DNA of 64,000 bases, taken from contig DAOKYO010000001.1 of assembly GCA_035326105.1 (NCBI GenBank), forward strand, positions 395,805 to 459,804, given 5' to 3'. Within the stretch, counting starts at the first letter, position 1. Each line of letters begins with the position of its first letter. The translations under genes and the position numbers were made by a program. The notes beneath the pieces are model-generated. The model searched no databases. It had not been told where the DNA came from and saw only the letters and a program-made list of their open reading frames with translations. This DNA comes from Bacilli bacterium (GTDB taxonomy: Bacteria; Bacillota_I; Bacilli_A; RFN20; CAG-826). Positions 1,573 to 29,329 of this stretch are shown piece by piece.

Positions 1573-1645
1573 TATTGAAAGAAGTGTAGAGACAGTGGGC
1601 CTAGCTAAAACCTAGTTAGGCCCCTAATTTAAATAGGGAACATTT

Positions 1646-3148
1646 ATGAACATCATAGCAGGTGATTTGTTACGTCGAATAGATTTAAATCGAAAACGTC
1701 TTAGCGACGATATCTACCAAAGTCCCGAGGTGTTTTTACAAGGGGAAAATTGGCCGGGAGATTTTCAAGGCCGCGATATTTTGGCCCTTTGTTCGCTTTA
1801 CAAAGTGTATGCGAATGATTATCAAAAAAAGATTGGCATCAGTATACAATTGGCAAAGATTTTTGATGGTATTAATCAGCATTTAAACGCGTATGGTTAT
1901 TTTGGGTCACTTTTTGACTGCACGTCAATTGATGAACAGCAAGTGGCGGGAAACTCTTGGTATATTCGTGGATTAATTGAATACTATAAGTTGAATCAAA
2001 ACCCCAAATACCTGCATCAAATAGAAATTATTAGAGACCGATTTCTTTTAGCTATCGCCCCTTATTATCAGAACTATCCTGTTTTTGCTCGGCGTGAGGT
2101 AGGAGGAGTGGGTGGGCATATTACCGAACAGGTTATCAACGGATGGAAAGTGTCAAGCGATGTCGGTTGTGCGTTTATTATGCTCGATGGAATGAGCGCC
2201 GTTTATGAAATTTTACCCAGCTTAGAATTAAAAAAAGCGATTGAAGACATTATTGACCGATTTTTGGGTTTAGATTGTGTGCAATTGGAATGTCAAACAC
2301 ACGCTACATTATCTTGTGCCCGCGGCATTTTTCGTTTTTATCTAGTGAGTAAAAATCAAAAGTATTTAGACTCCGTCATTCAAATATTTAATAAATATAT
2401 CAATTATGGTCTTACCTATGACTATGCGAACATCAATTGGTTTAAGCATATGGACAGTTGGACGGAACCCTGCTGCATTATTGATAGTCTGATATTGGCT
2501 AAGAATCTTTTTATAACTACCGGCGACAAATTTTACTTACATTTTTATAATCGCGTCTACGTTAATTCTTTGCGCACATTTCAACGCGATAATGGGGGGG
2601 CCGGTTGCTCGACGTGTGCCATTGATCATCATTATGAGATTAAAAGCCACCTATATGAGGCATTTTTCTGTTGCACAATGCGTTTGGCCGAAGGATTCTA
2701 TGAGATAGCATCTTTTGCTGGATTTGAAAAGAATGACGACCTGTATATTCCTTTTGGATTGGACTTTACCTATCATAAAAACGAAACTGAAATTGATTTT
2801 ATAAATGATTTTTATGCCCATAAGGTCATCCTTATTCAAGGACGAAATCTGAAGACAAGAAAAAATGTTCTTATCTATCTACCACGGGGGATAAAAGCTC
2901 GCGGATTTGAAAAGGATCAAGCGGGTTTTATAAAATTATCAATGTCAAATAATGATAAAATTAGTGTTGAATTAGACTATGAGGTTCGTATAGAAGATAA
3001 TATTTTGCTTTATGGTGATATGCTTTTAACCAAGAAGGATGATGGTGAGCCGTTCTATCAATATCAAGGCGAAAACTATTCACCGCTTTATGATAATTCT
3101 CAATTCAGTGAAGAGGAGTTAAAAGGCAAAGTCCAATATGTCAGATAG
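1646..3148 (+). CDS. Putative glycoside hydrolase, Cys-rich, DUF1680/GH127-like (family assignment tentative)
   Basis: 500-aa ORF; Cys clusters (EPCC, CSTC, FFCC) reminiscent of Zn/Cys-glycosidase GH127; lies next to a GH78-like gene; plausible RBS. Confidence 0.45.
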   Translation: MNIIAGDLLRRIDLNRKRLSDDIYQSPEVFLQGENWPGDFQGRDILALCSLYKVYANDYQKKIGISIQLAKIFDGINQHLNAYGYFGSLFDCTSIDEQQVAGNSWYIRGLIEYYKLNQNPKYLHQIEIIRDRFLLAIAPYYQNYPVFARREVGGVGGHITEQVINGWKVSSDVGCAFIMLDGMSAVYEILPSLELKKAIEDIIDRFLGLDCVQLECQTHATLSCARGIFRFYLVSKNQKYLDSVIQIFNKYINYGLTYDYANINWFKHMDSWTEPCCIIDSLILAKNLFITTGDKFYLHFYNRVYVNSLRTFQRDNGGAGCSTCAIDHHYEIKSHLYEAFFCCTMRLAEGFYEIASFAGFEKNDDLYIPFGLDFTYHKNETEIDFINDFYAHKVILIQGRNLKTRKNVLIYLPRGIKARGFEKDQAGFIKLSMSNNDKISVELDYEVRIEDNILLYGDMLLTKKDDGEPFYQYQGENYSPLYDNSQFSEEELKGKVQYVR

Positions 3149-5650: not shown

Positions 5651-6382
5651 ATGGAAGATTTTTTAGCCCCTAAGTATTACTTATTAAAAAAGGAAATTGT
5701 TCATCAAATTGACAACGAAGTTTTTAAAGACGGCGAATTAATTCCCAGCGAGCGCGAATTGGTCCAAAAGTATGGTGTCTCGCGTATTACCGTTCGTCGG
5801 GCCATCGATGAATTGGTCAGTGAAGGTTACCTATATCGCGTTCAAGGCAAGGGTACCTTTGTTAAAAGTAATTTACTTGAGCAAAACATAATAACCCTTA
5901 ATAGCATTACGCAAGACATTATTGCGATGAATAAGAAACCGCGCCGTATTGTCAATCGTGTGGAAATTGCTCCTTCGTTTCCGAAGCGAACAAAAGAGTT
6001 AGAGATAAATCCTAATGACAAGTTAATCATTATCGATCGTTTGTATTTAGGTGATGATGAACCGGTTACTCGAACAATATCCTATATTCCGTATAAATAT
6101 TTTCCGGGATTAGAAAAGTATGATTTTGTCAAAAATTCCTTATTTGAAGTCCTTGAGAAAGATTATGGAGTAAAGATTACCCGTGGTCTAAGAACAATTG
6201 AAGCAATAAATCCGCCTGAAGGCGTGGCCGAGATGCTTCAAATTAAAAAACAACCAGTGATTCTATTTAGAGGAACAACCTATGCCTTAGTTAATGGCAA
6301 AGAAGTGCCAATTGAATCATTTAAATCTTATTATCGGTCTGACAATCGGCGATTCTCAATTAGCCAAGTAAAAATTGGCTGA
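5651..6382 (+). CDS. GntR family transcriptional regulator, HutC subfamily (HTH plus UTRA effector domain)
   Basis: N-terminal SERELVQKYGVSRITVRRAIDELVSEGYLYRVQGKGTFV is a GntR winged helix; the C-terminal ~150 aa are UTRA-like. Confidence 0.85.
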   Translation: MEDFLAPKYYLLKKEIVHQIDNEVFKDGELIPSERELVQKYGVSRITVRRAIDELVSEGYLYRVQGKGTFVKSNLLEQNIITLNSITQDIIAMNKKPRRIVNRVEIAPSFPKRTKELEINPNDKLIIIDRLYLGDDEPVTRTISYIPYKYFPGLEKYDFVKNSLFEVLEKDYGVKITRGLRTIEAINPPEGVAEMLQIKKQPVILFRGTTYALVNGKEVPIESFKSYYRSDNRRFSISQVKIG

Positions 6383-6417
6383 AACATATACACTGTTTCA
6401 TCACGAAAGGAGAAAGT

Positions 6418-7569
6418 ATGAAAAAAAAGTGGATGTTGTCGATGTCGATGTTGTTGCCGTTGATGCTTGCCGGATGTGGAGGTGGCAATTCATCTACTAA
6501 AGTGGGGTTAATTGTATCCGCGGCGGGAGCCAATGATAACGGGTACAATCAGTCGGCGATTGCGGGTTTGACTAAGGCGGCGAGTGATTTCAATATCTCG
6601 CAAAAAGTTGTTAACAGTGCCGATGACGTGCCGGGTTCATTGGAAGCTTTGGCTGAAGATGGTTATAAACTTATCTTCTCCCTCGAGTACAATTTCGATG
6701 CCTTAATTACCAATGATGGTTCGGGCAAATCAATTGCGGAGAAGTATCCGGATACGACTTTCGTCGTCTTCAATGCTTTCGCTAATACGGATAGCACGGG
6801 AGTTCGGGTTCATGACAACGTAGTTGAAGTGTTGTTTAACATTGCCCAGTCATCATTCTTAGCCGGAGCACTGGCGGTTATGGTCAATGAGGCGAACGAT
6901 GTCTTATTTACCTCGGATGATTACCATTTTACCCCAGTAAATCAATATCGGGGTGTAGGTTTCATCGGCGGAACGCAATCAGATGGAATTACCGTCTTCG
7001 GCAATGGATTTGCCCAAGGCGCCAACTACGCCGCCCAAGACGCCGATGTGAATTACAATCTATATCAAACATATAGTGCCGGATTTGGGGCTTCAACGGA
7101 AAACTACAATACTATTGCCTCCTATTATGACGCCGGTGTCAATGTCGTGTTTGCGGCGGCAGGTGGCGTTTCAACAAATATGAAAAATGCCGCTAGTAAT
7201 AAGGGAAAACTTTCAATTGATGTTGATGCCAATCAAGACGCCTCCGTTCCTGGATATGTTTTAACCAGCGTGCTTAAAAACACCGAAGTAGCAGTCTATG
7301 ACTTAGTCGGAAAATTCTTGGACAATAAACTCACCGAGAAAGATTATTACTATGATCTTGACAGCGGAGCGACCGGGATTACCGATTTAGCCACGATTTC
7401 CAGTTATATTGATACGTCAGAAACGGCACAAGCCAAATGGACGGAGATTAAAGACAAAATTGAAGATATTAAAGATGATATCGCCGACGGAACGATTACG
7501 GTTGTCGATTCTCAAAAAGGTGAGACATTGGATTTTTCAACTTTGCATAATATTACGAAAGCCAACTAG
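6418..7569 (+). CDS. BMP family (PnrA/Med-like) ABC transporter substrate-binding lipoprotein, nucleoside-binding type
   Basis: Signal peptide plus lipobox LMLAGCGG; ~380 aa; followed by a tandem-ATPase ABC subunit and two permeases, the typical bmpA-nupABC layout; RBS AAGGAG. Confidence 0.8.
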   Translation: MKKKWMLSMSMLLPLMLAGCGGGNSSTKVGLIVSAAGANDNGYNQSAIAGLTKAASDFNISQKVVNSADDVPGSLEALAEDGYKLIFSLEYNFDALITNDGSGKSIAEKYPDTTFVVFNAFANTDSTGVRVHDNVVEVLFNIAQSSFLAGALAVMVNEANDVLFTSDDYHFTPVNQYRGVGFIGGTQSDGITVFGNGFAQGANYAAQDADVNYNLYQTYSAGFGASTENYNTIASYYDAGVNVVFAAAGGVSTNMKNAASNKGKLSIDVDANQDASVPGYVLTSVLKNTEVAVYDLVGKFLDNKLTEKDYYYDLDSGATGITDLATISSYIDTSETAQAKWTEIKDKIEDIKDDIADGTITVVDSQKGETLDFSTLHNITKAN

Positions 7570-7600
7570 TCGTTAAAATTTTTAAGGAAGTTATATTAAC

Positions 7601-9190
7601 ATGGATATCATCAAGACGATAAATTTAACCAAAGAATTCGGTCCCCTCGTAGCTAACGATCACATTAATCTCACCGTTAAGGATAATGAGGTTAAGGCAA
7701 TTGTCGGTGAAAATGGGGCCGGAAAATCCACGTTAATGAACATGCTTTATGGTTTGATTAAGCCGACGAGCGGAGAGATTTATGTCGAAAACGAACTAGT
7801 CACTCTCCGCTCGCCAAATGATGCCATTAGTCGCGGAATCGGGATGGTGCACCAACATTTTAAGTTGGTGCCCAGCCTGACCGTTTTTGAAAATATTCTT
7901 TTAGGAGTCGAAATTAATAAAGAAGTGACAGTTGGTAAAAAGAGAATTCGATTACCGGGTATTAATCGTCACAAGGAACTTGAAGTTGTAAAAAATCTCA
8001 TCGATAAGTATGAGTTAAATATAAATCCGGATGAAGAGGTCAAGAAACTTTCCATCGGAGCCAAACAAAAAGTCGAAATTTTAAAGATGCTTTATCGGCA
8101 AGTTAAAATTCTAATTTTTGATGAACCAACGGCGGTTTTAACTCCGCAGGAAATACTTGTTTTTTACACGATGCTCAGAAACTTAAAAGCCAAAGGGACC
8201 ACAATTATCTTGATTACCCATAAGTTGCAGGAAGTAATCGACATTTCCGATTCAGTCACAGTGATTAAAAAAGGAAAAGTGGTTGCAAATTTAGCCACTA
8301 AAGATACGACGAAAAAACAATTAGCTCAACTGATGGTGGGGCGCGATGTCCTTTTAAACGTCAGCAAGACCTATGCGGATTATCAAAAGCAAGAATCGGT
8401 TTATCGATTGGAACATGTATCGACAATTAATCGCAGCGGAGTGGAAGTGGTATCCGATGTTAGCCTAAATCTCCATCGGGGCGAAATTGTCGGCATAGCC
8501 GGGGTTGAAGGAAATGGACAGAGTGAACTCTTGGATCTAATGAGTGGACTTTTGCAATCAACCCAAGGAAAAATCTTTCTTCATAATCAAGATATTACCA
8601 ACGTCCTGCCGGAAAAATTAAGAAAAAAACACATGGCCTTTATTCCCGAAGATCGTTACGAACAGGGTTTATGCCGTGATATGACGATCTGTGACAACAT
8701 GATTGCCGGCTATCACGATAGCGATGATATTTGCCATATGGGTTTTATCTCGGCAAAAAAGAAAATGGATAAAGCCGAACATTTAGCTTCAAAATATGAC
8801 ATTCGCCTTAATTCATTAAAAGACAATATTTCTTCTCTTTCCGGCGGTAATGCGCAAAAAGTAATTATTGCGCGAGAATTTGCTTCCGATCCGGATATTT
8901 TGATTGCCGCTCAACCGACAAGAGGCGTGGATATCGGAGCGATTGAGTACATTCATAAGAGTCTGCTTGATCTACAAAATCACGGGAAATCAATCCTTTT
9001 GGTTTCAAGCGAACTATCGGAAATAATGTCATTGAGCGATCGGATATTAGTCATGTACAAAGGACGAATTATCGGCCAGTTGGATGCAAAGAATGCCTCC
9101 CGAGAAGAAGTTGGGTATTTGATGATGGGAATTATTGATAGTAAAGAAGGAGGTAGCGAGCATGAAGGTCAAAATGTTATCGATGAGTAA
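7601..9190 (+). CDS. ABC transporter ATP-binding protein with two tandem ATPase cassettes (nucleoside/sugar type)
   Basis: Two Walker A motifs (GENGAGKST and GVEGNGQSE), two LSxGxxQK signatures, and FDEPT and IAAQPT Walker B regions; 529 aa. Confidence 0.85.
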   Translation: MDIIKTINLTKEFGPLVANDHINLTVKDNEVKAIVGENGAGKSTLMNMLYGLIKPTSGEIYVENELVTLRSPNDAISRGIGMVHQHFKLVPSLTVFENILLGVEINKEVTVGKKRIRLPGINRHKELEVVKNLIDKYELNINPDEEVKKLSIGAKQKVEILKMLYRQVKILIFDEPTAVLTPQEILVFYTMLRNLKAKGTTIILITHKLQEVIDISDSVTVIKKGKVVANLATKDTTKKQLAQLMVGRDVLLNVSKTYADYQKQESVYRLEHVSTINRSGVEVVSDVSLNLHRGEIVGIAGVEGNGQSELLDLMSGLLQSTQGKIFLHNQDITNVLPEKLRKKHMAFIPEDRYEQGLCRDMTICDNMIAGYHDSDDICHMGFISAKKKMDKAEHLASKYDIRLNSLKDNISSLSGGNAQKVIIAREFASDPDILIAAQPTRGVDIGAIEYIHKSLLDLQNHGKSILLVSSELSEIMSLSDRILVMYKGRIIGQLDAKNASREEVGYLMMGIIDSKEGGSEHEGQNVIDE

Positions 9191-10274
9191 AGAGAAATGG
9201 ACTAAGCTCGGATATGGGACTTTAAACGCTATTATCCCGATTATTATCGCTTTCCTTTTAGGAGCAGTGGCCATTTTGTTAGCTCAAGAAAATCCGTTGT
9301 TGGCCTATGGTACCATTTTCTATCGTTCGTTTTTAAAGTGGGACGGATTCTTAAAAACTCTTCACTATGCGGCGCCATTGATTTTATCGGGCTTGGCAAT
9401 TGCCTTTAGTTTTAAGGCCGGTCTATTCAATATGGGAATTGAAGGGCAAATTATATCAGCCGGCTTTGTCGTGGCTATTTTTGGCAACAAGCTGGCTTTT
9501 CTTCCTCCGATAATTCTCATTCCTTTATTGCTTATTATCGGAACCATTACAGGGGTAATAATGGCCATCATTCCCGCCATTTTAAAAGCGAAGTACAACG
9601 TTAATGAAATGGTTGTTACTTTACTCTTAAATTATGCGATTGCATTAATTCTTGAATATCTTACCTCAAATATTTTCCGTGACCCCGGAAGCGGATATGT
9701 TTCCACACCAATGATTGGCAACAATGCAATATTCACCCGTATCGGTGATAGCAAGCTAACTGTTTTCTTCTTTATCGTCCTGGCAGTATTTGTTCTGTTT
9801 TACTTTATTATGAATCACAGCAAGTTGGGATTTGAGATAACTGCCTTAGGAAAAAACAGAAGTTTCGCTGAAGCCACTGGCATGAATATTCAAAAGAAAA
9901 TCATCGTCATTATGCTGACCAGCGGAGCATTGGCGGGTTTGGCGGGGGCGGGCTGGATGATGTCGGAAAAATTCTCCTATACTTTATCTTTTTCCGGAAC
10001 GGCAGGCTTAGGCTGGGAAGGAATGCTTATTGCCCTTTTAGGAAATCATAGCCCGTTGGGGATATTGGTGGCGGCGATATTTTACTCCGTATTAAAAACG
10101 GGTTCTTCCAGCGTAGCCATATTTACAAACGTTCCCTCGGAAATTGTCTTGCTCATTCAAGCTTTGATTGTTTTGATGCTTTCGCTTAAAACCTTTGTCA
10201 AACCGCGCGTAAACACAAAGGAAACCCACTTTAAAAAAGAAAAGGTCAGAGACGAAAGAAAGGCGGAAAAGTAA
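9162..10274 (+). CDS. ABC transporter permease (BMP/nucleoside system, first permease)
   Basis: Multi-TM hydrophobic protein. Start moved to ATG 9162 (MKVKM...), which is preceded by GAAGGAGG; the ORF-track start 9135 overlaps the ATPase gene. Confidence 0.75.
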   Translation: MKVKMLSMSKEKWTKLGYGTLNAIIPIIIAFLLGAVAILLAQENPLLAYGTIFYRSFLKWDGFLKTLHYAAPLILSGLAIAFSFKAGLFNMGIEGQIISAGFVVAIFGNKLAFLPPIILIPLLLIIGTITGVIMAIIPAILKAKYNVNEMVVTLLLNYAIALILEYLTSNIFRDPGSGYVSTPMIGNNAIFTRIGDSKLTVFFFIVLAVFVLFYFIMNHSKLGFEITALGKNRSFAEATGMNIQKKIIVIMLTSGALAGLAGAGWMMSEKFSYTLSFSGTAGLGWEGMLIALLGNHSPLGILVAAIFYSVLKTGSSSVAIFTNVPSEIVLLIQALIVLMLSLKTFVKPRVNTKETHFKKEKVRDERKAEK

Positions 10275-10275
10275 C

Positions 10276-11193
10276 ATGGATTTTATAATTAAAATTTTGT
10301 TTGATTCGCTATATTTTAGTGGACCGATTATCCTTATTGCTCTCGGAGGCCTTTTTGCTTATAAAGCCGGTATCGTAAATATCGGTTTGGATGGTTTTAT
10401 GCTTTTTGGAGCACTAGCTTCAACCTTAATTCTTTACTTTACGAAGAGTTGGGCTTTAGCCTTACTTGGCGGTATTGTAATCGGCATTTTGCTGGGAGTA
10501 TTATTCTCCTTCTTCGGAGTAACGAAAAAAGCAAATTTTATTATCACCGGTTTTGCAATCGGTCTGTTATCGACCGCCGCCGGCAAATACGCTCTAGCGC
10601 TTATGCACGACACCTCAATCAATGTCATTGGCATTCTATCGACGGGGGCCAGTCGATTAAATATTCCGCTAATCGAAGATATTCCTTTTATTGGCCCAAT
10701 TATCTCAGGCCATACTTATCTCACATATTTCGCCTATATCAGTATCTTCCTTGTCGGCTTCATTATGAAGAAAACAAAGTTTGGAACTTATGTTCGTGTG
10801 GTAGGTGAATCGGAGGAAGCCGCACGGTCAGTCGGAATCAACATTAACCGCATAAAGTACTTAGCGGTCATTATCGGCGGAATTTTTACCGCTCTAGCCG
10901 GGTATGAAGTAGCTATTGTGCAACTGTCGTCGTACACAACGGATATTACCGCCGGTATGGGCTTCATCGCTTTAGCGGCGATATATTGTGGTGACGGTGA
11001 CCCGGGAAAGGTTTCGATATATGCAATTCTATTTGGAGTTGCGCAGGCACTATCGGTCAATCTTGCTATTCGAATCGGCAGTATTGCGGGGTTATTGAAA
11101 ATCATTCCTTATATCACTATCGTCATCGTGCTCTTCGTTGTTGCCTTAATTAAAAATCGGAAAAGCTTATATCGGGGGTTTATTTATGAATAA
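10276..11193 (+). CDS. ABC transporter permease (BMP/nucleoside system, second permease)
   Basis: 305-aa polytopic membrane protein immediately after the first permease. Confidence 0.75.
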   Translation: MDFIIKILFDSLYFSGPIILIALGGLFAYKAGIVNIGLDGFMLFGALASTLILYFTKSWALALLGGIVIGILLGVLFSFFGVTKKANFIITGFAIGLLSTAAGKYALALMHDTSINVIGILSTGASRLNIPLIEDIPFIGPIISGHTYLTYFAYISIFLVGFIMKKTKFGTYVRVVGESEEAARSVGININRIKYLAVIIGGIFTALAGYEVAIVQLSSYTTDITAGMGFIALAAIYCGDGDPGKVSIYAILFGVAQALSVNLAIRIGSIAGLLKIIPYITIVIVLFVVALIKNRKSLYRGFIYE

Positions 11194-11752
11194 GAAGTAT
11201 GCGCTAATTGTGGTTGATATGGTATACGATTTTACTAATCCCAATGGTAAAATCTTCTATCCCTTAAATGTCGACTTATTGCCTAAAATTAAGGATTTCA
11301 TTGCCGAAGTCAGAAAATATGGGGTTCAAATCATTTATATGCAACACTCAGTAACAAAGAGAATGCTTGAAGAGTCTCCGAAGAAAACGAGAGAATGTTG
11401 CTTGGTCGGTACCAAGGGTGAACAGATTGACGAGCGTTTAGAAATCCGACCCGAGGATTTGGTAATTAAAAAACATAAGTACAGTTCATTTTTTGAGACC
11501 GGGCTTGATCAAGAATTAAAGAGTCGCGGAATTGACCATATTATCGTTGCGGGAACAAAAACGAACAACTGTGTTTTTGCTACAGTTTTAGATGCGTATA
11601 ATCTCAACTATCACGCGTTTGTTCCAAAAGAATTAGTAGGCACTACCGATTATGAAACTAATGGCGTATACCTTCGGGATATGGGCAAATACCTATGTGA
11701 AGTAATGAGTGACCGGGAGATTATTGCTCATCTTCAGGAAGGGATACTATGA
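11186..11752 (+). CDS. Isochorismatase-family cysteine hydrolase (nicotinamidase/PncA-like)
   Basis: ALIVVDMVYDF (catalytic Asp region), conserved Lys, and IVAGTKTNNCVFAT (G-x-x-T-x-x-C-V nucleophile motif). Confidence 0.7.
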   Translation: MNKKYALIVVDMVYDFTNPNGKIFYPLNVDLLPKIKDFIAEVRKYGVQIIYMQHSVTKRMLEESPKKTRECCLVGTKGEQIDERLEIRPEDLVIKKHKYSSFFETGLDQELKSRGIDHIIVAGTKTNNCVFATVLDAYNLNYHAFVPKELVGTTDYETNGVYLRDMGKYLCEVMSDREIIAHLQEGIL

Positions 11753-12702
11753 AAAAATACGATGTCATCATCAGTGGATATATTGCTTTTGATCGGGTGA
11801 TTAAAATTGCCAGTCTCGCTAAAATCGGCAAAACTTCAATCATCACCAATAATGATAATAATGTTATCGAGTTTGGCGGTTGCGGAATTAACGTGGCCGT
11901 TGATCTGGCGACGCTTGGCTATAAAACACTCCCGGTTATCCGTGTGGGCGATGACTATGAAAGCAGTGGTTTTGCTTATTTTGTTAAAAATCACCGCTTA
12001 AGCGAAGCTGCCATTAAAAAAGTAACCGGTGTAAATTGCAGTTCCTGTTATTTGGTTGAAAACCCAAGTATGGATCACATCACGCTATATTATCCGGGTT
12101 CGATGGATGAAAAGTACTTTCTTAGTTACGATGAAGATTGGTTTAAGGAAAGCAAATTCGCCCTTATGACAGTAGCCAGCCGAAAGGATAATGAAGCATT
12201 TCTCGCGCTGACAGGCAAATACCATTTACCCACCTATTTTGGGATGAAAATGGATAAAACGGCTTTTCCTCCAGCCTTTCTTCGCAAAGTTTTAAAACGA
12301 GTCAGCGGTGTTTTTGCTAATAAGGTAGAAATCACTTATATTAAGCAAATTCTTCATATCGAACATACCAATCAAATGTTTTCTTTTAATAGCAATTTGC
12401 AATTTGTTGTTGTCACTAATGGTAAAAAAGGAAGCACTATTTATTATCGTAACGACAATAAGATTGAAAAAGCTACGATTGGAATTGTCCCGGCGGATGA
12501 ATTTGTCTCTACGGTTGGTTCGGGCGACGCTTATATGGCAGGCTTTATTTATGGATTAATCAAAGAGAAGGATTACTTACAATCGGCGAAGCTTGGGGCC
12601 ACATTGGCGACTTGTATTATTGAGGGGGTCGGAGCTACAAGCTCGGCTCCAGATGAAAAGCAATTGTGGGAACGGTATTATCGTTTCTTTGGAAAGGAAT
12701 AA
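11749..12702 (+). CDS. PfkB-family carbohydrate/nucleoside kinase (ribokinase-like)
   Basis: C-terminal GSGDAYMAGFIYGL matches the PfkB DTxGAGD anion-hole motif; the start is translationally coupled to the preceding gene. Confidence 0.75.
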   Translation: MKKYDVIISGYIAFDRVIKIASLAKIGKTSIITNNDNNVIEFGGCGINVAVDLATLGYKTLPVIRVGDDYESSGFAYFVKNHRLSEAAIKKVTGVNCSSCYLVENPSMDHITLYYPGSMDEKYFLSYDEDWFKESKFALMTVASRKDNEAFLALTGKYHLPTYFGMKMDKTAFPPAFLRKVLKRVSGVFANKVEITYIKQILHIEHTNQMFSFNSNLQFVVVTNGKKGSTIYYRNDNKIEKATIGIVPADEFVSTVGSGDAYMAGFIYGLIKEKDYLQSAKLGATLATCIIEGVGATSSAPDEKQLWERYYRFFGKE

Positions 12703-12705
12703 ATT

Positions 12706-13470
12706 ATGCAACCGACACTCTATTTAAAAGTTACCGACCAAAGTGTAGCTCCATATGTGATTTTTTCCGGCGATCCCTGGCGGGTGGAAGTCCTAAAAAG
12801 TTACCTTGACAATCCTCAAAGCGTTGGTTTTTATCGGGAATTCAATACTTATACCGGCACCTATAAAGGCTTGCCCATCACGATTACTTCCACCGGAATT
12901 GGCGCGCCTTCGGCCGTAATTGCCCTCGAAGAAATGTTCGATGCCGGGATGAAAGTGGCTTTACGAATGGGAACAGCAATGTCGCTGAGTAAAGCGGATT
13001 TGGGAAATTACATTATTCCCGCTTCTTCGAAAAGATTAGAGAAAACAAGCCTTACCTATGTTGATGAAAATTATCCGGCGAAAGCCGATCCAAAGTTTCT
13101 TCAGTCCATCATCAAAACCGTAACAAGCGCAGGGCAAAAAGTCATCACTGGCGAAAGTGCGACCATGGATGGATATTATTCGCAAATGAAGGAATCTCGA
13201 CTTTCAAAAATACGGCGAGTGGACATTGAAAGGAACTTTACGCAGTTAGAACAAGAAGGCATTATCTCGGTCGACATGGAAACATCTGCACTGATGGTAG
13301 TTGCCTCGCTTATGAAAGTGCCGTTTGCCTCATTGACCTTAGTCACAGTTTTGAAAAATCTCGCCGCCTTATTGGATGAAAAAACACGGAGGCGAAAAGA
13401 AGATGAACTTTGTCGGTTGGCGCTAGATTCGATGGTTAATTTTGTGAAGGAGGAAAAAATAAATGAATGA
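12706..13470 (+). CDS. Nucleoside phosphorylase, PNP/UDP family 1 (DeoD/Udp-like)
   Basis: FSGDPWRVEVL...YTGTYKGLPITITSTGIGAPSAVIALEEM and VDMETSAL align with DeoD/Udp core motifs. Confidence 0.75.
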   Translation: MQPTLYLKVTDQSVAPYVIFSGDPWRVEVLKSYLDNPQSVGFYREFNTYTGTYKGLPITITSTGIGAPSAVIALEEMFDAGMKVALRMGTAMSLSKADLGNYIIPASSKRLEKTSLTYVDENYPAKADPKFLQSIIKTVTSAGQKVITGESATMDGYYSQMKESRLSKIRRVDIERNFTQLEQEGIISVDMETSALMVVASLMKVPFASLTLVTVLKNLAALLDEKTRRRKEDELCRLALDSMVNFVKEEKINE

Positions 13471-14248
13471 TTTTTTTAAGAAATATCCAAAGACGATAAT
13501 TGGTATGGTCCATTGTTTGCCTTTGCCAGGGACAGCCCGTTATTCCGATTTAAATCAAGTGCGTAAACAGGCTTTAGCCGATGCACTTACGCTTCAAAAA
13601 GCGGGTTATGATGCGATTATGATTGAAAATATGGGCGACGCTCCATATGCCGAAAAAATGGATTTAGCCCAAATCACAGCGATGAGTGCAATCGCCGAGA
13701 TGATAAAAGAGGCGGTTGATCTTCCTTTAGGAATTGATTGTGCTTTCAGTGATTATCGCAGTGCTTTAGCCATTGCTAAGGCAGTCGGAGCAGATTTCAT
13801 TCGCATTCCCGTTTTTATCGATACGGTGGTCTACGCTAATGGCATTATCTATCCTTCGGCGCACGATGCCTTAATTTATCGGCGGGAAATTGACGCTGAA
13901 AAAGTGCTGATTATGGCTGACCTACAGGTTAAGCACACCCATATGCTCGTTAATGATATGAGTATTGAAGAATCGGCTAAACTAGCAGAAGCAAGCGGAG
14001 CCGATGCCGTAGTTGTAACGGGTGTTTTGACGGGTAAGCCAACTTCAATTGAAGATATTGAGCAGGTCAAAAAAGCCGTTACGGTTCCAGTTTATGTTGG
14101 CTCGGGTGTGAGTGTTAAAAACATTAAAGATCAATTGAGTATTGCCAGTGGCGTTATCGTTGGCAGTTCTCTAAAAGACAAAGGCAAAGTTAGTTTACCG
14201 GTTGATTTCGATTTAGCCAAAGAGCTAATTGAAGCATATAAGAAATAG
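13463..14248 (+). CDS. BtpA/SgcQ family TIM-barrel protein (function unknown)
   Basis: N-terminal KTIIGMVHCLPLPGTARYS matches the BtpA/SgcQ family signature. Confidence 0.55.
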   Translation: MNDFFKKYPKTIIGMVHCLPLPGTARYSDLNQVRKQALADALTLQKAGYDAIMIENMGDAPYAEKMDLAQITAMSAIAEMIKEAVDLPLGIDCAFSDYRSALAIAKAVGADFIRIPVFIDTVVYANGIIYPSAHDALIYRREIDAEKVLIMADLQVKHTHMLVNDMSIEESAKLAEASGADAVVVTGVLTGKPTSIEDIEQVKKAVTVPVYVGSGVSVKNIKDQLSIASGVIVGSSLKDKGKVSLPVDFDLAKELIEAYKK

Positions 14249-14260
14249 GAGGAGAAGAAT

Positions 14261-14992
14261 ATGCGTTTAATTTGTTTTCTTAATCATGGCTCGCCTTCAA
14301 TTGAAGCCAGCCATCGCGTCGTCGATTGTTATGTTGAGGGTGGAGCGGATGTAGTCGAGACGGATTTTCCAGCAGATGATCCCTATCTTGACGGAGACAA
14401 CATCAAAATTCGGATGCATGAAGCATTAACAAAATGCCACGATTATGACAAATACATGAAGTCGGTAGAGACCATTTTGAAGGAGCATCCAGGAATTCAT
14501 CTTTATATGTTGATTTATGAAGAAACGATTATGGCAATTGGTATGGAGAAATTTCTGGCTTTCTTAAGAAGAAATAATTTACAGGAAGTGTTGCTGGTTG
14601 GAGCGCGGCATCCGGAAGTTCGGGCTCGGCTTTTAAAAGAAAAATTAAAAGTCAGTGCCTACATCGAATACCATTTGCCCGAAGATGAGATTGAAACAGC
14701 CAAGCAAACAACGGGGTTTGTTTACCTGCAGGCGACACCATCTGGCAAATTCCATTCTCAATATAAAGATCTTAAGTCAATTATCAAGTACCTGCGCGAA
14801 GAACGGGGTATTTCCAATGAAATCAACTGCGGTATCGGAATTCATGACTATGATCAAGTTAGAATGGTTCGTGACGCCGGAGCGGATGGAGTGTTTATCG
14901 GCACGCAGGTTATGAACCTGCATGGACAACCGGAAAAGCTTATTGCCAAGGTCAAAGAACTAAAGGCAATCGCCAGCGGTCAAGTAAAGTAG
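14261..14992 (+). CDS. Tryptophan synthase alpha-subunit (TrpA) homolog, stand-alone paralog in a nucleoside operon
   Basis: Alignable with E. coli TrpA across the barrel: GGADVVETDFPADDPYLDGDNIK vs [23 protein letters not shown], with catalytic Glu and Asp equivalents conserved; CGIGIHDYDQVRMVRDAGADGVFIG vs [24 protein letters not shown]. No trpB adjacent. Confidence 0.6.
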   Translation: MRLICFLNHGSPSIEASHRVVDCYVEGGADVVETDFPADDPYLDGDNIKIRMHEALTKCHDYDKYMKSVETILKEHPGIHLYMLIYEETIMAIGMEKFLAFLRRNNLQEVLLVGARHPEVRARLLKEKLKVSAYIEYHLPEDEIETAKQTTGFVYLQATPSGKFHSQYKDLKSIIKYLREERGISNEINCGIGIHDYDQVRMVRDAGADGVFIGTQVMNLHGQPEKLIAKVKELKAIASGQVK

Positions 14993-24323: not shown

Positions 24324-24351
24324 TTGACTTATTAACCGCTGCCGATAGAAT
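24324..24351 (+). promoter_or_regulatory. Promoter TTGACT-16nt-TAGAAT driving the T-box leader
   Basis: Near-consensus hexamers about 300 nt upstream of the ORF start. Confidence 0.5.
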
Positions 24352-24357
24352 ATAGTT

Positions 24358-24625
24358 AACCAAATATTAAAAGACGCTGATGAAGAGAAAAGTTTTAAAT
24401 CTAAATTTAGAGAGTCCAGTCGCGGTGCAAATGGAAATTAGATTGAAACAAAATATACACTTCGGAGTCGGAGGCTGAAACTAGTAGGCACTCCCGGTAG
24501 TTGTCCGTTAAAACGACTAGAGTTGTTGGACTCGATAAGTGATGGCTATGGCCATAATTAGGGTGGTACCGCGGAATATCTGAACGATTTTCGTCCCTGT
24601 GAAAGCAAGGAGAAAATCGTTTTTT
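24358..24625 (+). promoter_or_regulatory. T-box riboswitch leader (tRNA-sensing transcription antiterminator)
   Basis: AGAGA motif at 24384-24388; F-box CCGTTA at 24505-24510; Stem III hairpin ATGGC/GCCAT at 24541-24556; canonical T-box sequence AATTAGGGTGGTACCGCGG at 24556-24574; terminator CGATTTTC...GAAAATCG plus T6 at 24585-24625 whose 5' arm can alternatively pair with the T-box sequence. Confidence 0.8.
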
Positions 24626-24654
24626 ATTTTCTCCCGTTTAGAAAGGAGAACTAT

Positions 24655-26106
24655 ATGTTCCACATTGCCAGATTTAAAGCCGAGCCGTTTCCGTTAGAAA
24701 TGCACAAAGTACGAGTTGTTCAGAAATTAAATTTACTTCCGATTGATGAACGATTACAAGCGATTCAAGAAGCCGGGAATAACACTTTTCTTTTAAGAAA
24801 TCGCGATGTCTTTCTTGATATGCTAACCGATAGTGGAACCAACGCGATGAGCGATCGGCAAATTGCCTCAATGTCCATCGCCGATGATTCTTATGCCGGA
24901 AGCGAGACATTCTTTCGCTTAGAGAAAGTTCTGCAAGATTTTTTCGGCATGAAGTTTTTTCTTCCTGCCCATCAAGGGAGGGCTTGTGAGCATATCATAG
25001 CCAAGGTATTTGTTAAGCCGAACGATGTCGTTCCGATGAACTACCATTTTACCACGACCAAAGCCCATATTATGGAATGCGGAGGAAGGGTGGAAGAGTG
25101 TTTCTTTGATAAGGCCATTATTCCGGAAAGCGAAAATCCATTTAAGGGCGATATGGATCTGGAGAAATTAAAAGCTCTCATCGGTCGCGTTGGTAAAGAC
25201 AGGATACCTTTTGTGCGCTTAGAGATGGGAACAAATCTCATCGGCGGGCAACCGGTTTCACTGCATAACATCAAAGAGGTCGGCGAATTTTGCCATCAAA
25301 ATAATATAATGCTGGTAATTGATGCTTCCCTTTTATCGGATAATCTTTTCTTTATTAAAACCCGGGAAGCGATAGCGGAGAATATGAGTATTCATGATAT
25401 TGTTCTGGCTATAGCCAAGACTGCCGATATCATCTATTTCTCCGGAAGAAAACTCGGAAGTGCCCGCGGTGGTGGCATTATTACTCCGCACCAAGAACTT
25501 TTCGATAAAATGAAGAATCTTATTCCACTATTTGAAGGATTTCTTACTTACGGAGGGATGTCGGTCCGGGAAATGGAGGCTTTGGCTGTGGGAATCGAAG
25601 AGACACTGGATATTGATATGATATCTCAGGGTCCGGAGTTTATCGCGGCATTTGGGCAGATGCTCCAAAAAAATGGCATCCCGGTTATTACTCCATTTGG
25701 GGGATTAGGATTACATCTTAACGCGCGGGCATTTATTCCCCATGTTAAATCGGAAGAATATCCGGCGGGAGCATTAGCCGCGGCAATATATATTGTCAGT
25801 GGCGCCCGCGGGATGGAGCGGGGGACGATATCAGAAACGCGCAATGCCGATGGCAGTGAGCATCCGGCTAGCATGGAACTTGTGCGTCTAGCCCTTCCGC
25901 GGCGAGTATTTACTCTTTCGCAAATAACCTTTATTGCCGATCGTTTAAATTGGCTTTTTGAAAATCGCAATCTTATCGGCGGACTGCATTTTGTGGAGGA
26001 ACCAAAAGTTATGCGTTTCTTTATTGGTCGTTTAAAGGAAAATGGCGATTGGCAAGAAAAACTGAAAGAAAAGTTCATCGAAGATTTTGGTATCGATGCC
26101 CTATAA
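24655..26106 (+). CDS. Tryptophanase / tyrosine phenol-lyase family PLP-dependent beta-eliminating lyase
   Basis: Alignable with E. coli TnaA along its length (FLLRNRDVFLDMLTDSGTNAMSD, FFLPAHQGRACEHI, GGQPVSLHNIKEV, FEGFLTYGGMSVREMEALAVG; PLP-Lys region SGRKLGSARGG). RBS AAGGAG. Confidence 0.8.
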   Translation: MFHIARFKAEPFPLEMHKVRVVQKLNLLPIDERLQAIQEAGNNTFLLRNRDVFLDMLTDSGTNAMSDRQIASMSIADDSYAGSETFFRLEKVLQDFFGMKFFLPAHQGRACEHIIAKVFVKPNDVVPMNYHFTTTKAHIMECGGRVEECFFDKAIIPESENPFKGDMDLEKLKALIGRVGKDRIPFVRLEMGTNLIGGQPVSLHNIKEVGEFCHQNNIMLVIDASLLSDNLFFIKTREAIAENMSIHDIVLAIAKTADIIYFSGRKLGSARGGGIITPHQELFDKMKNLIPLFEGFLTYGGMSVREMEALAVGIEETLDIDMISQGPEFIAAFGQMLQKNGIPVITPFGGLGLHLNARAFIPHVKSEEYPAGALAAAIYIVSGARGMERGTISETRNADGSEHPASMELVRLALPRRVFTLSQITFIADRLNWLFENRNLIGGLHFVEEPKVMRFFIGRLKENGDWQEKLKEKFIEDFGIDAL

Positions 26107-26116
26107 AATATGAAAA

Positions 26117-26144
26117 AGGACACACATATGCGTGTCCTTATTTT
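26117..26144. terminator. Bidirectional terminator hairpin (AGGACACAC-ATAT-GCGTGTCCT) between convergent genes
   Basis: Near-perfect 9-bp stem flanked by an A-run on the 5' side and a T-run on the 3' side. Confidence 0.6.
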
Positions 26145-27037
26145 ATAAACGTAAAACGATTACGACCTTTATTTTTGCTCTCATACATCCCTTGATCGGC
26201 CCGTCGTGTGATCGACTCCTCGTCATCATTTTTTTGGGCAATGGTAATGCCGACGGAAATAGTGACCGATATATTGTTACCATGGTCAACAAAATTGGAA
26301 TTTTTGACTAAAGTAATGGCATGACTGGCAATTTCTTCTAACTCACGGGGGGAATGGCAACCGGAGATAACCATAAATTCCTCTCCTCCCCATCGACCGA
26401 TAAAGGTCGGCTCAGTGAATATATCTGAAAGCGTGGTGGCAACCATTTTTAGTACTTTATCGCCCGTATCATGGCCATATGTATCATTAATCGACTTGAA
26501 GTGGTCGATATCAATCATCATAACGGAAAAGGAAAGATTAAGATCATTATATTGCCGAATAAAATTCTTGAGCGTTGAATCGATATAGCGGCGGTTAGGA
26601 ATACCCGTCAGTTGATCATGGAGGGCCAAATAGGTAAGTTCGTCAATCTTGGAGACGGGGATATTGTCACTGTTATGAACAAAAAACTCGAATGCACCGA
26701 CAATTTCGCCATTTACTATCAACGGAACCGTACGGATAGTAACCGCGACACGATGCCCCTTTTTATGATGAAGATAGACCTTAGCTTCTCGACGAATACC
26801 ATCATTCATTGTTTTGGATAGAGGACAGGCCGTTGTACATAGGCATATCCCTTCTTCATCAACGTGGTTTAAAATGTTATCAAAACAGTGGTAGTTGACC
26901 ACTTCCTTTTCTCCGTAACCGGAAATTTTTTCCGCTTCTTTATTCCAATACAAAATTTTACGGTCCTTATCAACGTAATAGACTCCATCATAACTTGTAT
27001 CCAAAATTTTGGCATACTCATCGATTTTTTCTTTCAT
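26138..27037 (-). CDS. PAS-domain diguanylate cyclase (GGDEF)
   Basis: N-terminal PAS (YYVDKDRKILYWNKEAEKISGY); GGDEF catalytic motif RWGGEEFMVI. Confidence 0.85.
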   Translation of the reverse strand: MKEKIDEYAKILDTSYDGVYYVDKDRKILYWNKEAEKISGYGEKEVVNYHCFDNILNHVDEEGICLCTTACPLSKTMNDGIRREAKVYLHHKKGHRVAVTIRTVPLIVNGEIVGAFEFFVHNSDNIPVSKIDELTYLALHDQLTGIPNRRYIDSTLKNFIRQYNDLNLSFSVMMIDIDHFKSINDTYGHDTGDKVLKMVATTLSDIFTEPTFIGRWGGEEFMVISGCHSPRELEEIASHAITLVKNSNFVDHGNNISVTISVGITIAQKNDDEESITRRADQGMYESKNKGRNRFTFIK

Positions 27038-27523
27038 TGGTTCTCCCGGAAAGGTAAGACATTTATTCTGCCTGATTAAATGGACTCAAAAGACATTAAA
27101 ACAAAAACCATCCAGGATGATTATACACAAGTGTCGATTAAAAATGCGAGCGATTAACACTAAGCAACTTAAAAATTAAGTAAAAGTATAATTTATTCAA
27201 TAAAAGCATTCTCTTTTTATTTTATTAAGAAATAACTTATATTATGAGTAGCAATAGCTTCTTAAAAAATATATTAATAATTGATAAAACATATACTCTG
27301 GGATGTAGGTAAAGAAGAAAATTTGCTATCGCTTGTTATCATTGGGGAACGAACTTTTTATCCGGGCAAAAAATAATCAGTTTTCATCGGTCGTTTCTAA
27401 CTTTTAATCATTTATGCTATCATATTATTTGTCAGGATGAAGCTTTAAGTGGAACCAGTAATAACAACAAATAATTTTATCGATTTGGCGTTGGGGGCGT
27501 TCAAATAAACGAAGGAGTCTTTT

Positions 27524-29329
27524 ATGCAACAGCTCTTTATCGGGACTAAACTATTTATCGTTGGTTTATCTTTAAACGACATCGAATTAATAACTCTCGT
27601 AGTTATCTTATTTTTAGCGTTAGGTCTCGTGGTATTATCGGTTATAATCTCATATATCAGTCATCGTCGGAAATTGGCGCGGTTTACGGTTTCGTCGTTA
27701 AAAATCGGAGTGATTGCCACCAATCGCCATCGGCGAATTTTTTACGTAAATCCGGCGATGGAAGAATTGACAGGCTATACATTTAAGGAATTAAAAAACA
27801 AAAATCCGCGCATATTATCGAGCGGGCGCCACGATTCCACCTTCTATCATAATATGTGGAATGATATTCGTGATAAAGGATTTTGGACGGGAGAAATGTG
27901 GGACCGGAGAAAAGATGGTACACTTTATCCCAAGCGCATCAGTATTTATGCTATTCGAGGGGTTTTTGGCCTTGGTATTAGCTATGTCAGCACTCACGAG
28001 GATCTCTCTATCGCACATAAAACGGAAGAGCAAATTACTTTTTTAAGAGACTATGTTCCTAGCACCAATCTTTTAAATCAAAATGCGATGATTCAACGGA
28101 TGAATGCCCTTATTGATGACAAGAAACCCTTCTCAATCATTTTCCTGCGGGTGAGCAATTATAGTTATCTTCAAATCACTCAGTCACAGGAGAAATACTA
28201 TCGAGCGATTGTAAGTTTTATCGAACACTTAGCAATCCAGATGAATATGCCTTCGGAATCGTTTGCTCAAATTAGCGACGACTCACTGTTAATTATCTCT
28301 CCCTTAAGCGAAATAAGCGCAATCACGGCCTTTGTAGAAGAAATAATCCGTCTTGATGAACGGGAGATTAATTTTAACAATGAGGATAATCTTCTTTTCA
28401 CCTTCAAATGCGGAATCAGCCGGTATCCAGAGGATGGGGTTAGTGCGGTTACTCTTTTGACCAACGCGCAAATAGCGACAAGTAAAATTAATGAGGATAG
28501 CAAGCGCGATTATATATTCTATCGTCCTGAACTATCACAAAAAATAACCGAAGACGAAAAGATAAAAGAACAACTTGTTAATGGTATTAAAAATAATGAG
28601 TTTGAACTTTTCTATCAACCCAAGATTGATATTCAAAATAATGTAGTGGTTGGGGCGGAAGGTTTATTACGGTGGCGATCTCCGACCCTGGGATTGGTTT
28701 CCCCGATGCGTTTTATCCCGGTAGCGGAGCGCTTAGGATTAATGAATGATATCGGCGCATTTGTTATTCGCAAAGCGGTAAATGATCTAGTTATTATCAA
28801 TAGTATTTTTAACAAAAAGCACCTTCAATTTTCGGTTAATACGACCGCTTCGCAGTATGTTCAAAATCGCTTGTATGAAACGCTTATTGAAGTACTCGGC
28901 AACTCGCATATCGATGCTAAGCAATTGGAGTTGGAAATCACCGAGAGTATCCTGATTGACGATCGGGCGCAAATGATAGCCTACCTTAGTAAAATCAGAG
29001 AATTAGGAGTTACTATTTCCCTGGACGATTTTGGTACGGGATATTCATCGCTCGGATATATTCGGGACATGCCGATTGATACGTTAAAGATTGACCGTAG
29101 TTTTATTAAGGATTATCCGAAGGATGATGACGGAAAAGTGGCGGAAGCGATTATTTCTTTAGCGCATCTTTTTAATCTAAAACTTGTGGCTGAAGGAGCC
29201 GAAACCCTTGAACAAGTGGAGTTTCTACGGGAAAAGAAGTGTCAGATGGTTCAGGGATACTACTATGCAAAGCCACTTCAATTTGCGGATTTTATTGATT
29301 TTGTTAAAAATTTCGACAGTAAAAAGTAA
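27524..29329 (+). CDS. Membrane-anchored PAS / degenerate-GGDEF / EAL c-di-GMP phosphodiesterase
   Basis: Two N-terminal TM helices; PAS; central GGDEF-like region lacking a GG(D/E)EF motif; EAL domain with ELEITES, DDFGTGYSSL and KIDRSF motifs. Confidence 0.8.
   Translation: MQQLFIGTKLFIVGLSLNDIELITLVVILFLALGLVVLSVIISYISHRRKLARFTVSSLKIGVIATNRHRRIFYVNPAMEELTGYTFKELKNKNPRILSSGRHDSTFYHNMWNDIRDKGFWTGEMWDRRKDGTLYPKRISIYAIRGVFGLGISYVSTHEDLSIAHKTEEQITFLRDYVPSTNLLNQNAMIQRMNALIDDKKPFSIIFLRVSNYSYLQITQSQEKYYRAIVSFIEHLAIQMNMPSESFAQISDDSLLIISPLSEISAITAFVEEIIRLDEREINFNNEDNLLFTFKCGISRYPEDGVSAVTLLTNAQIATSKINEDSKRDYIFYRPELSQKITEDEKIKEQLVNGIKNNEFELFYQPKIDIQNNVVVGAEGLLRWRSPTLGLVSPMRFIPVAERLGLMNDIGAFVIRKAVNDLVIINSIFNKKHLQFSVNTTASQYVQNRLYETLIEVLGNSHIDAKQLELEITESILIDDRAQMIAYLSKIRELGVTISLDDFGTGYSSLGYIRDMPIDTLKIDRSFIKDYPKDDDGKVAEAIISLAHLFNLKLVAEGAETLEQVEFLREKKCQMVQGYYYAKPLQFADFIDFVKNFDSKK

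Follow-up and report, generated by a model that had tools for sequence, protein, structure and literature searches.

A T-box leader with a tyrosine specifier ahead of a tyrosine phenol-lyase-like gene in a Bacilli genome, and a probable salvage role for the enzyme

Within a 64,000-nucleotide stretch of a Bacilli genome (GenBank assembly GCA_035326105.1, contig DAOKYO010000001.1, positions 395,805 to 459,804), hereafter called the window, a T-box riboswitch precedes a gene for a lyase that depends on pyridoxal 5'-phosphate (PLP) and is related to tryptophanase (TnaA) and tyrosine phenol-lyase (TPL). The anatomy of the RNA, its tyrosine specificity and the conservation of the T-box/lyase pairing are well supported by sequence comparison; we infer which way the reaction runs, which co-substrate it uses and what its physiological role is. 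In the reading that we favour, and consider reasonably probable, the lyase is induced by tyrosine starvation and forms tyrosine from phenol, in a salvage or synthetic role.

The T-box leader and its specifier codon

Scanning of the whole 64-kb window with Rfam covariance models returned a single match, to the T-box family RF00230 (24368-24601, plus strand; 99.8 bits against a gathering score of 93, E 8.6e-21), which spans model positions 1-219 of 219. A first-pass annotation of this DNA, made from the sequence by eye, had recognised a T-box before a TnaA/TPL-family gene, and the match confirms a complete attenuation leader directly 5' of the lyase gene. The covariance scan and folding that it had proposed matched the T-box over its full length and placed the specifier loop at UAC-A (24456-24459). 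The features of the unit are as follows.

24324-24351, plus strand: sigma-70-type promoter-like site, TTGACT-16 nucleotides-TAGAAT (consensus match only, 10 of 12 positions)
24368-24601, plus strand: T-box leader RF00230 with Stem I, Stem II, a IIA/B region with CCGUUA, Stem III and antiterminator (covariance model)
24374-24467, plus strand: Stem I (covariance-model alignment and centroid fold)
24432-24435, plus strand: UGG-A, the other specifier candidate of the first-pass annotation, paired with UCCA: 3' strand of the distal Stem I helix (alignment and fold)
24456-24459, plus strand: specifier codon UAC (Tyr) and conserved purine A, directly 5' of the CUUC strand of the lower helix (alignment and fold)
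24556-24573, plus strand: T-box sequence AAUUAGGGUGGUACCGCG (sequence and covariance model)
24560-24598, plus strand: antiterminator helix AGGG...CCCU with a 7-nucleotide bulge, -8.2 kcal/mol (folding)
24564-24567, plus strand: acceptor-pairing bulge UGGU, complementary to a tRNA 3'-ACCA end and hence to discriminator A73
24583-24631, plus strand: intrinsic terminator, a 39-nucleotide hairpin (24583-24621) followed by the U-run UUUUAUUUU (folding)
24645-24648, plus strand: ribosome-binding site GGAG, 6 nucleotides 5' of the ATG (sequence)
24655-26106, plus strand: 483-amino-acid PLP-dependent beta-eliminating lyase of a TPL-like subfamily (open reading frame and profiles)
26116-26139, either strand: hairpin separating the lyase gene from a convergent GGDEF gene, terminator-like on both strands (sequence)

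The promoter-like site, whose first nucleotide is also where the first-pass annotation had begun the element, lies about 17-20 nucleotides 5' of the first T-box model position. Stem I comprises a K-turn region (GCUGAU / GGA), the lower helix GAAG/CUUC, the specifier loop, an AGAGA bulge and a GGUGCAA distal loop; the last two align with AGAGA and GGUGaaA of the model, i.e., the elements that dock the tRNA elbow are present. The terminator hairpin was predicted at -16.4 kcal/mol (z -4.4), and none of 200 shuffled sequences was equally stable. Because UUUUCGUCCCU is common to the 3' strand of the antiterminator and the 5' strand of the terminator, the two hairpins are mutually exclusive. The riboswitch belongs to class I, is of the transcription-attenuation type and, with its Tyr specifier, is an ordinary RF00230 T-box. 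With a hairpin (26116-26139) past the stop codon and a convergent neighbour beyond it, the lyase unit is monocistronic, consisting of the promoter, the T-box and one gene (24655-26106).

With GAAG and CUUC paired as the lower helix of Stem I, the 3' side of the specifier loop reads AAAAUA-UAC-A, and the codon UAC falls at 24456-24458. Since the S-turn of the window is degenerate, we compared the leaders of related lyase genes. UAC occupies the specifier position in all 20 related leaders with a readable Stem I, mostly as the canonical GAA-UAC-A (AGUA / GAA-UAC-A in L033, L037, L015, L017 and L027), and the UGGU bulge is kept in 22 of 22 lyase leaders. The helix 3' of the codon covaries among them (GAAG/CUUC, UGGG/CCCA, UGCG/CGCA, GGAC/GUCC, GGAA/UUCC and UGAG/CUCA). 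On contig L094, ARAGORN located a tRNA-Tyr(GUA) ending ...TTCCTCC-A-CCA (A73) 5.7 kb from the T-box lyase gene.

One metagenomic locus, L055, served as an internal control. Between positions 603 and 4728 it carries two T-box units in tandem, the first with a Tyr leader (UAC, UGGU) and the lyase gene, the second with a Trp leader (UGG-A, UGGC) and trpB-trpA. Only trpB (TIGR00263, 632.7 bits) and trpA lie behind the second T-box, and no trpE-F genes were found nearby. As this T-box was read as UGG-A with UGGC, the method separates Tyr from Trp, and by the same method the lyase leaders are Tyr. We therefore regard tyrosine (UAC), on these alignments, as almost certainly the amino acid specified in the window.

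The first-pass annotation had left the specifier open between the two tetranucleotides: UAC-A proved to lie in specifier position, and UGG-A, taken up in the distal helix, was rejected as a Trp specifier, with UAC and UGGU found throughout the related leaders. The UGG-A in Stem I, together with the NCBI-style protein name 'tryptophanase', had made it conceivable that a Trp-specific T-box drives a reversed tryptophanase forming tryptophan from indole. Against this, UGG-A is base-paired, UAC stands at the specifier in 20 of 20 leaders, and the bulge is UGGU, whereas the genuine Trp T-box of L055 has UGG-A and UGGC; the protein evidence given below points the same way.

The leader contains all the sequence elements that the established T-box mechanism requires. 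If the switch works as T-boxes do, transcription would begin at the promoter near 24351 and the Stem I specifier UAC (24456-24458) would read the GUA anticodon of tRNA-Tyr. When tRNA-Tyr is uncharged, its free A73-C-C-A end would pair with UGGU (24564-24567) and stabilise the weak antiterminator, allowing read-through into the lyase gene; when it is charged, the stronger terminator (24583-24631) would form and transcription would halt. The lyase would be made, then, when tyrosine is short.

A lyase subfamily close to TPL

The predicted lyase matches Pfam PF01212 (161.4 bits, cut-off 27) and the NCBIfam 'tryptophanase' subfamily NF009709 (568 bits, cut-off 285). It falls below the cut-off of the TPL equivalog TIGR02618 (437.8 vs 720.7 bits) and below those of the tryptophanase equivalogs TIGR02617 (314.8 vs 825.8) and NF053783 (382 vs 750). 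Identity is 40% to Citrobacter freundii TPL over the full length and 33% to Escherichia coli TnaA, and the closest solved structures are TPLs (E 1e-112), with tryptophanases matching more weakly (E 1e-88 or worse). An AlphaFold model (pLDDT 73, active-site loops of low confidence), which supports the fold only and is too weak for a structural reading of R217L, K256R and N262R, superposes best on TPLs (TM-score 0.82-0.85). Relative to TPL the window lyase has extra N-terminal residues and, in the model, a confident C-terminal helix (466-478) that is absent from TPL. This helix belongs to a C-terminal extension of about 20 amino acids (residues 463-483) in which W466, L470, K473, F474, D477 and F478 are invariant (alignment A1); canonical TPL and TnaA are without it. 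Look-up of the exact window protein returned no record.

Active-site residues were compared in an alignment of 84 distinct subfamily proteins with TPL and TnaA references. In the window lyase the PLP lysine is K266 (TPL K257), and Y80 (Y71), T133 (T124), R389 (R381) and F455/F456 (F448/F449) equal their TPL counterparts. Across the alignment, in TPL numbering, K257, Y71, R100, F123, N185, D214 and R404 are kept in 84 of 84 proteins, as are F36, T124, M379, R381, F448 and F449, which we take to be the residues of the TPL aromatic pocket. Four sites are TPL-type in every protein and separate the subfamily from TnaA, namely T124 (D in TnaA), M379 (V), R381 (I) and F448 (H). T124, R381 and F448 presumably belong to the phenol-binding, or substrate-ring, and catalytic set of TPL, with T124 and R381 binding the 4-hydroxyl group, and we take Y71 to be the TPL general acid. 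Several of these TPL residues are the subjects of mutant structures among the structural matches.

The subfamily also has residues of its own, which in the window lyase are D78, L226, R265, R271 and a phenylalanine at TPL position 288. The substitutions E69D, R217L, K256R and N262R (K in 3 proteins) differ from both TPL and TnaA in 84 of 84, and M288 is replaced in 84 of 84 by phenylalanine, the TnaA residue. We assume E69, R217, K256 and N262 to be cofactor-site or cation-site residues of TPL.

For the Trp-specific reading these comparisons complete the picture. The lyase has T, R and F (T124/R381/F448) at the indole-specific TnaA positions D137, I396 and H463 (E. coli numbering), is only 33% identical to TnaA and scores 314.8 against the 825.8 required by TIGR02617. 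We consider that reading already refuted and give it next to no credence.

A second alternative is that the lyase acts on a substrate unrelated to tyrosine, for instance through a cysteine or serine desulfhydrase or dehydratase side activity, and that its link to the Tyr T-box is indirect. TPL and TnaA have broad beta-elimination side activities, and the subfamily differs from TPL at five invariant positions. The presumed aromatic-pocket set (F36, T124, M379, R381, F448 and F449) is nevertheless strictly kept in all 84 proteins and the tyrosine specifier is consistent across lineages, and we judge this alternative highly improbable.

When 1.84 billion cluster representatives were searched, the subfamily formed a single full-length cluster at 50% identity, and the next full-length relative was 47% identical. 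Its members come from gut, termite, hare, toad, sludge and fermenter samples and are labelled 'tryptophanase' or, rarely, 'tyrosine phenol-lyase' in databases. A neighbour-joining tree shows the subfamily to be monophyletic with respect to C. freundii TPL. Comparison with characterised TnaA and TPL, for which the first-pass annotation had suggested a phylogeny, sets the lyase closer to TPL (40% identity) than to TnaA (33%) and assigns it canonically to neither one. The expectation that the specifier would decide between a tryptophanase and a TPL was not borne out, as the lyase falls short of both equivalogs and lies in a separate subfamily with five invariant differences. By its sequences this subfamily is a discrete, tight and widespread group of proteins of about 482 amino acids, neither canonical TPL nor tryptophanase. 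The lyase should not be filed as TPL or TnaA, since the defining features of each were tested for and are lacking; most likely it works like a TPL run backwards.

Among the more distant homologues were proteins of about 850-930 amino acids (P0121-P0126 and P0131-P0136) with two lyase-family stretches, such as a tandem duplication or a fusion would give; each stretch shares 33-37% identity with the window lyase.

Distribution of the pairing and gene context

Homologue loci were drawn from a GTDB genome (L001), from contigs of database homologues (L002-L012 and L094-L099) and from a metagenome scan (L013-L092, 80 loci); the homologous lyases collected were 55-94% identical to the window protein. 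T-boxes before the lyase gene scored 98 bits in L001/L002, 108.3 in the P0017 lineage and 116.1 in L096, and 12 metagenome loci (L033, L037, L055, L015, L036, L044, L017, L038, L059, L025, L050 and L042) scored 93.5-149 bits. The T-boxes of L058 and L027 lay under the gathering score, yet had E values of at most 1e-14. Five further T-box loci were detected by motif alone (L094, L072, L078, L081 and one more), two of them cut by contig ends. Median pairwise identity of the lyase leaders was 51%, and their gene neighbourhoods were unrelated. Retention of specifier, UGGU bulge and terminator/antiterminator pair in 20-22 such diverged leaders indicates that the switch is under selection.

Some of these loci had RNA elements of other kinds or unusual architecture. 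The Tyr T-box of L044 (1203-1395) is without Stem II, 2 nucleotides replacing 27 model positions, and still scored 105 bits; downstream of the lyase T-box the same locus has infC and a sub-threshold L20-leader match (2953-3073). L027 (5696-9217) has a second T-box (82.8 bits, under the gathering score) 3' of the lyase gene, before a HisZ/HisRS-like gene and hisD. A flavin mononucleotide riboswitch cut by the contig end was found in L013 (3684-3779) and a cyclic di-AMP riboswitch in L068 (2265-2412). The first 302 positions of L058 (1-302) hold the 5' end of a 16S rRNA gene, which could give the taxonomy of that organism.

The nearest genome, with 94% protein identity, is the metagenome-assembled genome UW_MP_BACIL2_1, placed by GTDB in the Bacilli (o__RFN20; f__CAG-826; g__UBA7706). 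It is 1.50 Mb in size, 98% complete and derives from a milk-permeate fermenter (PMC9302107).

No tRNA genes were found within the 64-kb window, and its open reading frames include no aromatic amino-acid genes apart from a TrpA-like paralog. The earlier statement that the window holds no trpB or other trp genes was essentially right; the one exception is this paralog (14261-14992), which matches PF00290 with 88 bits and TIGR00262 with 83.8 bits, under the cut-off of 102. It is the last gene of an unrelated operon (5651-14992) that also encodes a GntR/UTRA regulator, a BMP-type ABC transporter, an isochorismatase, a PfkB kinase, a PNP_UDP phosphorylase and BtpA, and it looks like a TrpA paralog in a nucleoside or sugar-derivative pathway rather than in tryptophan synthesis. 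A hidden trp operon in the window, hinted at by a Trp_syntA match at the edge of L002, was rejected, as 5651-14992 encodes this operon. The other open reading frames comprise sugar, nucleoside and transport genes, glycoside hydrolases, cyclic di-GMP enzymes and regulators. Directly downstream of the lyase, 26138-29329 contains the convergent PAS-GGDEF gene (26138-27037, minus strand) and a PAS-EAL gene, both annotated from the syntenic locus L002.

Clustering of neighbouring genes identified a DUF554 (PF04474) membrane protein as the sole recurrent neighbour of the lyase, in 6 of the 80 metagenome loci (L042, at 1917-2741, and L013, L016, L041, L075 and L079); other neighbours vary. In L042 the DUF554 gene overlaps the lyase stop codon and would therefore be under the same Tyr T-box. 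The DUF554 protein may be a transporter tied to the substrate or product of the lyase.

Direction of the reaction and comparison with known systems

As a T-box turns genes on when its tRNA is uncharged, a degradative role for the lyase would be illogical and a synthetic or salvage role natural. The TPL reaction is reversible, and TPL has served to produce tyrosine analogues from phenols within cells (PMC13578870). Induction when tyrosine is short, the retained TPL ring pocket and the reversibility of the TPL reaction together lead us to infer that the lyase runs in the C-C bond-forming direction: it would join phenol, pyruvate and NH4+, or phenol and serine by beta-replacement, to give L-tyrosine. 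A small-genome anaerobe would in this way salvage phenol released by its neighbours. The first-pass annotation had likewise argued from induction by uncharged tRNA that the lyase is used in the synthetic or salvage direction, and this logic holds. Its example, tryptophan from indole, was wrong, because the specifier is Tyr (by alignment, by 20 of 20 leaders, by UGGU and by A73 of tRNA-Tyr), and the residues are TPL-like. The juxtaposition in L055 of a Tyr-lyase unit and a Trp-trpBA unit fits the theme of ring salvage: we read the trpBA unit as serving indole salvage, and the two look like a pair of aromatic-ring salvage units.

The enzyme may instead be an ordinary catabolic one of TPL type, converting tyrosine to phenol, pyruvate and NH3, with a T-box that is leaky, vestigial or a general starvation signal for carbon and nitrogen. 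The characterised members of the wider family are all degradative, the T-box is absent from most subfamily members, and phenol-producing gut strains have TPLs (PMC6424909). The TPLs of those validated phenol producers, however, are 70-99% identical to C. freundii TPL (PMC6424909) and form a different clade, with the window lyase at 40%. Destroying tyrosine while tRNA-Tyr is uncharged would be self-defeating, and a vestigial switch sits poorly with a specifier, a UGGU and a terminator/antiterminator pair maintained in 20-22 diverged leaders. We consider such a catabolic role rather unlikely.

It is also conceivable that the lyase clears an antimetabolite. A tyrosine analogue that blocks tyrosyl-tRNA synthetase (L-DOPA, m-tyrosine, or a halogenated or otherwise ring-substituted form) would leave tRNA-Tyr uncharged and so induce a lyase that degrades it. 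By its established mechanism a T-box senses charging rather than tyrosine, TPLs cleave many ring-substituted tyrosines and L-DOPA, and the invariant changes at presumed active-site positions could mean another preferred substrate. Cleavage is also the direction favoured by TPL thermodynamics (PMC13578870). The adjoining Trp T-box and trpBA of L055 nevertheless point to salvage. In addition, T124 and R381, which we take to bind the 4-hydroxyl group, are unchanged, and we know of no T-box-controlled detoxification of this kind. On balance this explanation seems unlikely.

Several observations weigh against synthesis of tyrosine from phenol under T-box control. The S-turn in the window is degenerate in the covariance-model alignment, reading AGAAAA / AAAAUA where AGUA / GAA is canonical. 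A T-box was found in only 17 of the 80 metagenome loci; the remaining 63 were motif-negative, and in 60 of these 63 the covariance model at its gathering score found none either. The P0076 lineage is without a T-box, as are sister lineages of T-box-positive ones, and in the tree genes with a T-box are interspersed among genes without one, some negatives being close relatives of positives. As most subfamily members are without it, the pairing must be considered optional. T-boxes are rare outside Firmicutes, and some negative loci are therefore to be expected, such as the L064/L070 group with its Bacteroidota-type neighbours. No other RNA element was found by Rfam before T-box-negative homologues (60 loci at gathering score, 8 at E of at most 0.05).

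The enzyme and its hosts raise further objections. TPL Arg217, Lys256, Glu69 and Asn262 are missing from the window lyase, and its chemistry may therefore differ from that of TPL. T-box-positive L096 has genes for chorismate mutase, aroB, aroC, an aroE/aroK fusion and aroQ (461-4582), 4-7 kb upstream of the lyase; no tyrA or pheA is visible in its 17 kb. At least the L096 host would therefore make prephenate, and the hosts are not simply devoid of aromatic biosynthesis. Finally, the TPL equilibrium favours breakdown, and synthesis usually takes 1-10 mM substrate (PMC13578870).

With these objections in view, we still favour induction by tyrosine starvation of an enzyme that makes tyrosine from phenol. 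A more far-reaching proposal, which we put forward tentatively and hold to be possible rather than probable, is that the subfamily of about 482 amino acids is a natural, dedicated 'tyrosine synthase', a TPL descendant re-tuned for low phenol by E69D, R217L, K256R, N262R, M288F and the extra C-terminal helix. Reduced-genome anaerobes of gut and digester without prephenate or arogenate dehydrogenase would obtain their tyrosine chiefly or solely through it and would rely on cross-feeding of phenol from tyrosine fermenters, in a tyrosine counterpart of indole salvage by trpBA alone. That the invariant substitutions at the presumed cofactor and cation sites may adapt the lyase to the direction of synthesis is speculation.

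No link between a T-box and a TPL or tryptophanase was found in the searched literature, the TBDB paper or the supplements of Wels 2008; a mention in Vitreschak et al. 2008 remains possible. The novelty lies in the target: a known switch stands before a new class of target, a hitherto uncharacterised TPL-like subfamily for which we propose a role in biosynthesis. T-boxes serve to infer the functions of unknown genes, and here the inference opposes the database names ('tryptophanase' and 'tyrosine phenol-lyase'). If it is right, a large and very conserved group of uncharacterised enzymes, with thousands of metagenomic sequences (gut, termite, rumen-type and digester sources), would be misannotated as degradative. 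Phenol, a waste product of microbes and a precursor of uraemic toxins, would at the same time feed some members of the community, which would convert it back into tyrosine. A regulated phenol-to-tyrosine enzyme like those that engineers evolve for the synthesis of non-canonical amino acids would then already exist in nature, and the natural substitutions around the cofactor would be candidate changes favouring synthesis over cleavage.

Among known switches, the leader most resembles the Tyr T-boxes of the Bacillus subtilis tyrS type, with which it shares the Stem I specifier loop, Stem II with IIA/B, Stem III, the T-box sequence, the competing antiterminator and terminator, UAC with a purine, UGGU for A73 and a predicted response to uncharged tRNA-Tyr. 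It differs in that its target is a TPL-like lyase and not a synthetase, biosynthetic operon or transporter; moreover, the S-turn is degenerate in the lineage of the window, and the relative L044 is without Stem II. With TPL (EC 4.1.99.2, from C. freundii and Erwinia herbicola; TIGR02618) the lyase shares the fold, 40% identity, the PLP lysine and the ring residues; it departs from TPL in E69D, R217L, K256R, N262R/K, M288F, the extra N-terminal residues and the C-terminal helix of about 20 amino acids. Canonical tpl is degradative and induced by tyrosine via TyrR, whereas the window lyase is predicted to be induced under tyrosine shortage.

Like the Trp T-box/trpBA unit of L055, the window unit would use an uncharged-tRNA switch to drive a PLP enzyme whose reaction attaches an aromatic ring to the three-carbon backbone of an amino acid. 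TrpB, however, is of fold-type II and uses serine irreversibly, whereas the lyase is of fold-type I and the reaction of its family is reversible. A Tyr T-box on an enzyme usually deemed catabolic has a precedent in the Bacillus cereus group, where such a T-box controls phenylalanine-4-hydroxylase (Wels et al. 2008, PMC2494555), an arrangement explained by the product of that enzyme being tyrosine. That case concerns hydroxylation of phenylalanine in cultured Bacillus, and ours the inferred formation of a C-C bond from phenol in uncultured anaerobes. An engineered 'tyrosine synthase', TyrS, evolved from TrpB, and the use of TPL to make tyrosine analogues in cells show that a PLP enzyme can turn phenol into tyrosine in living cells and that the product can be charged onto tRNA (PMC13578870). 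Those systems were built in the laboratory and require either much phenol or extensive evolution, whereas the window lyase would be a possible natural and regulated counterpart.

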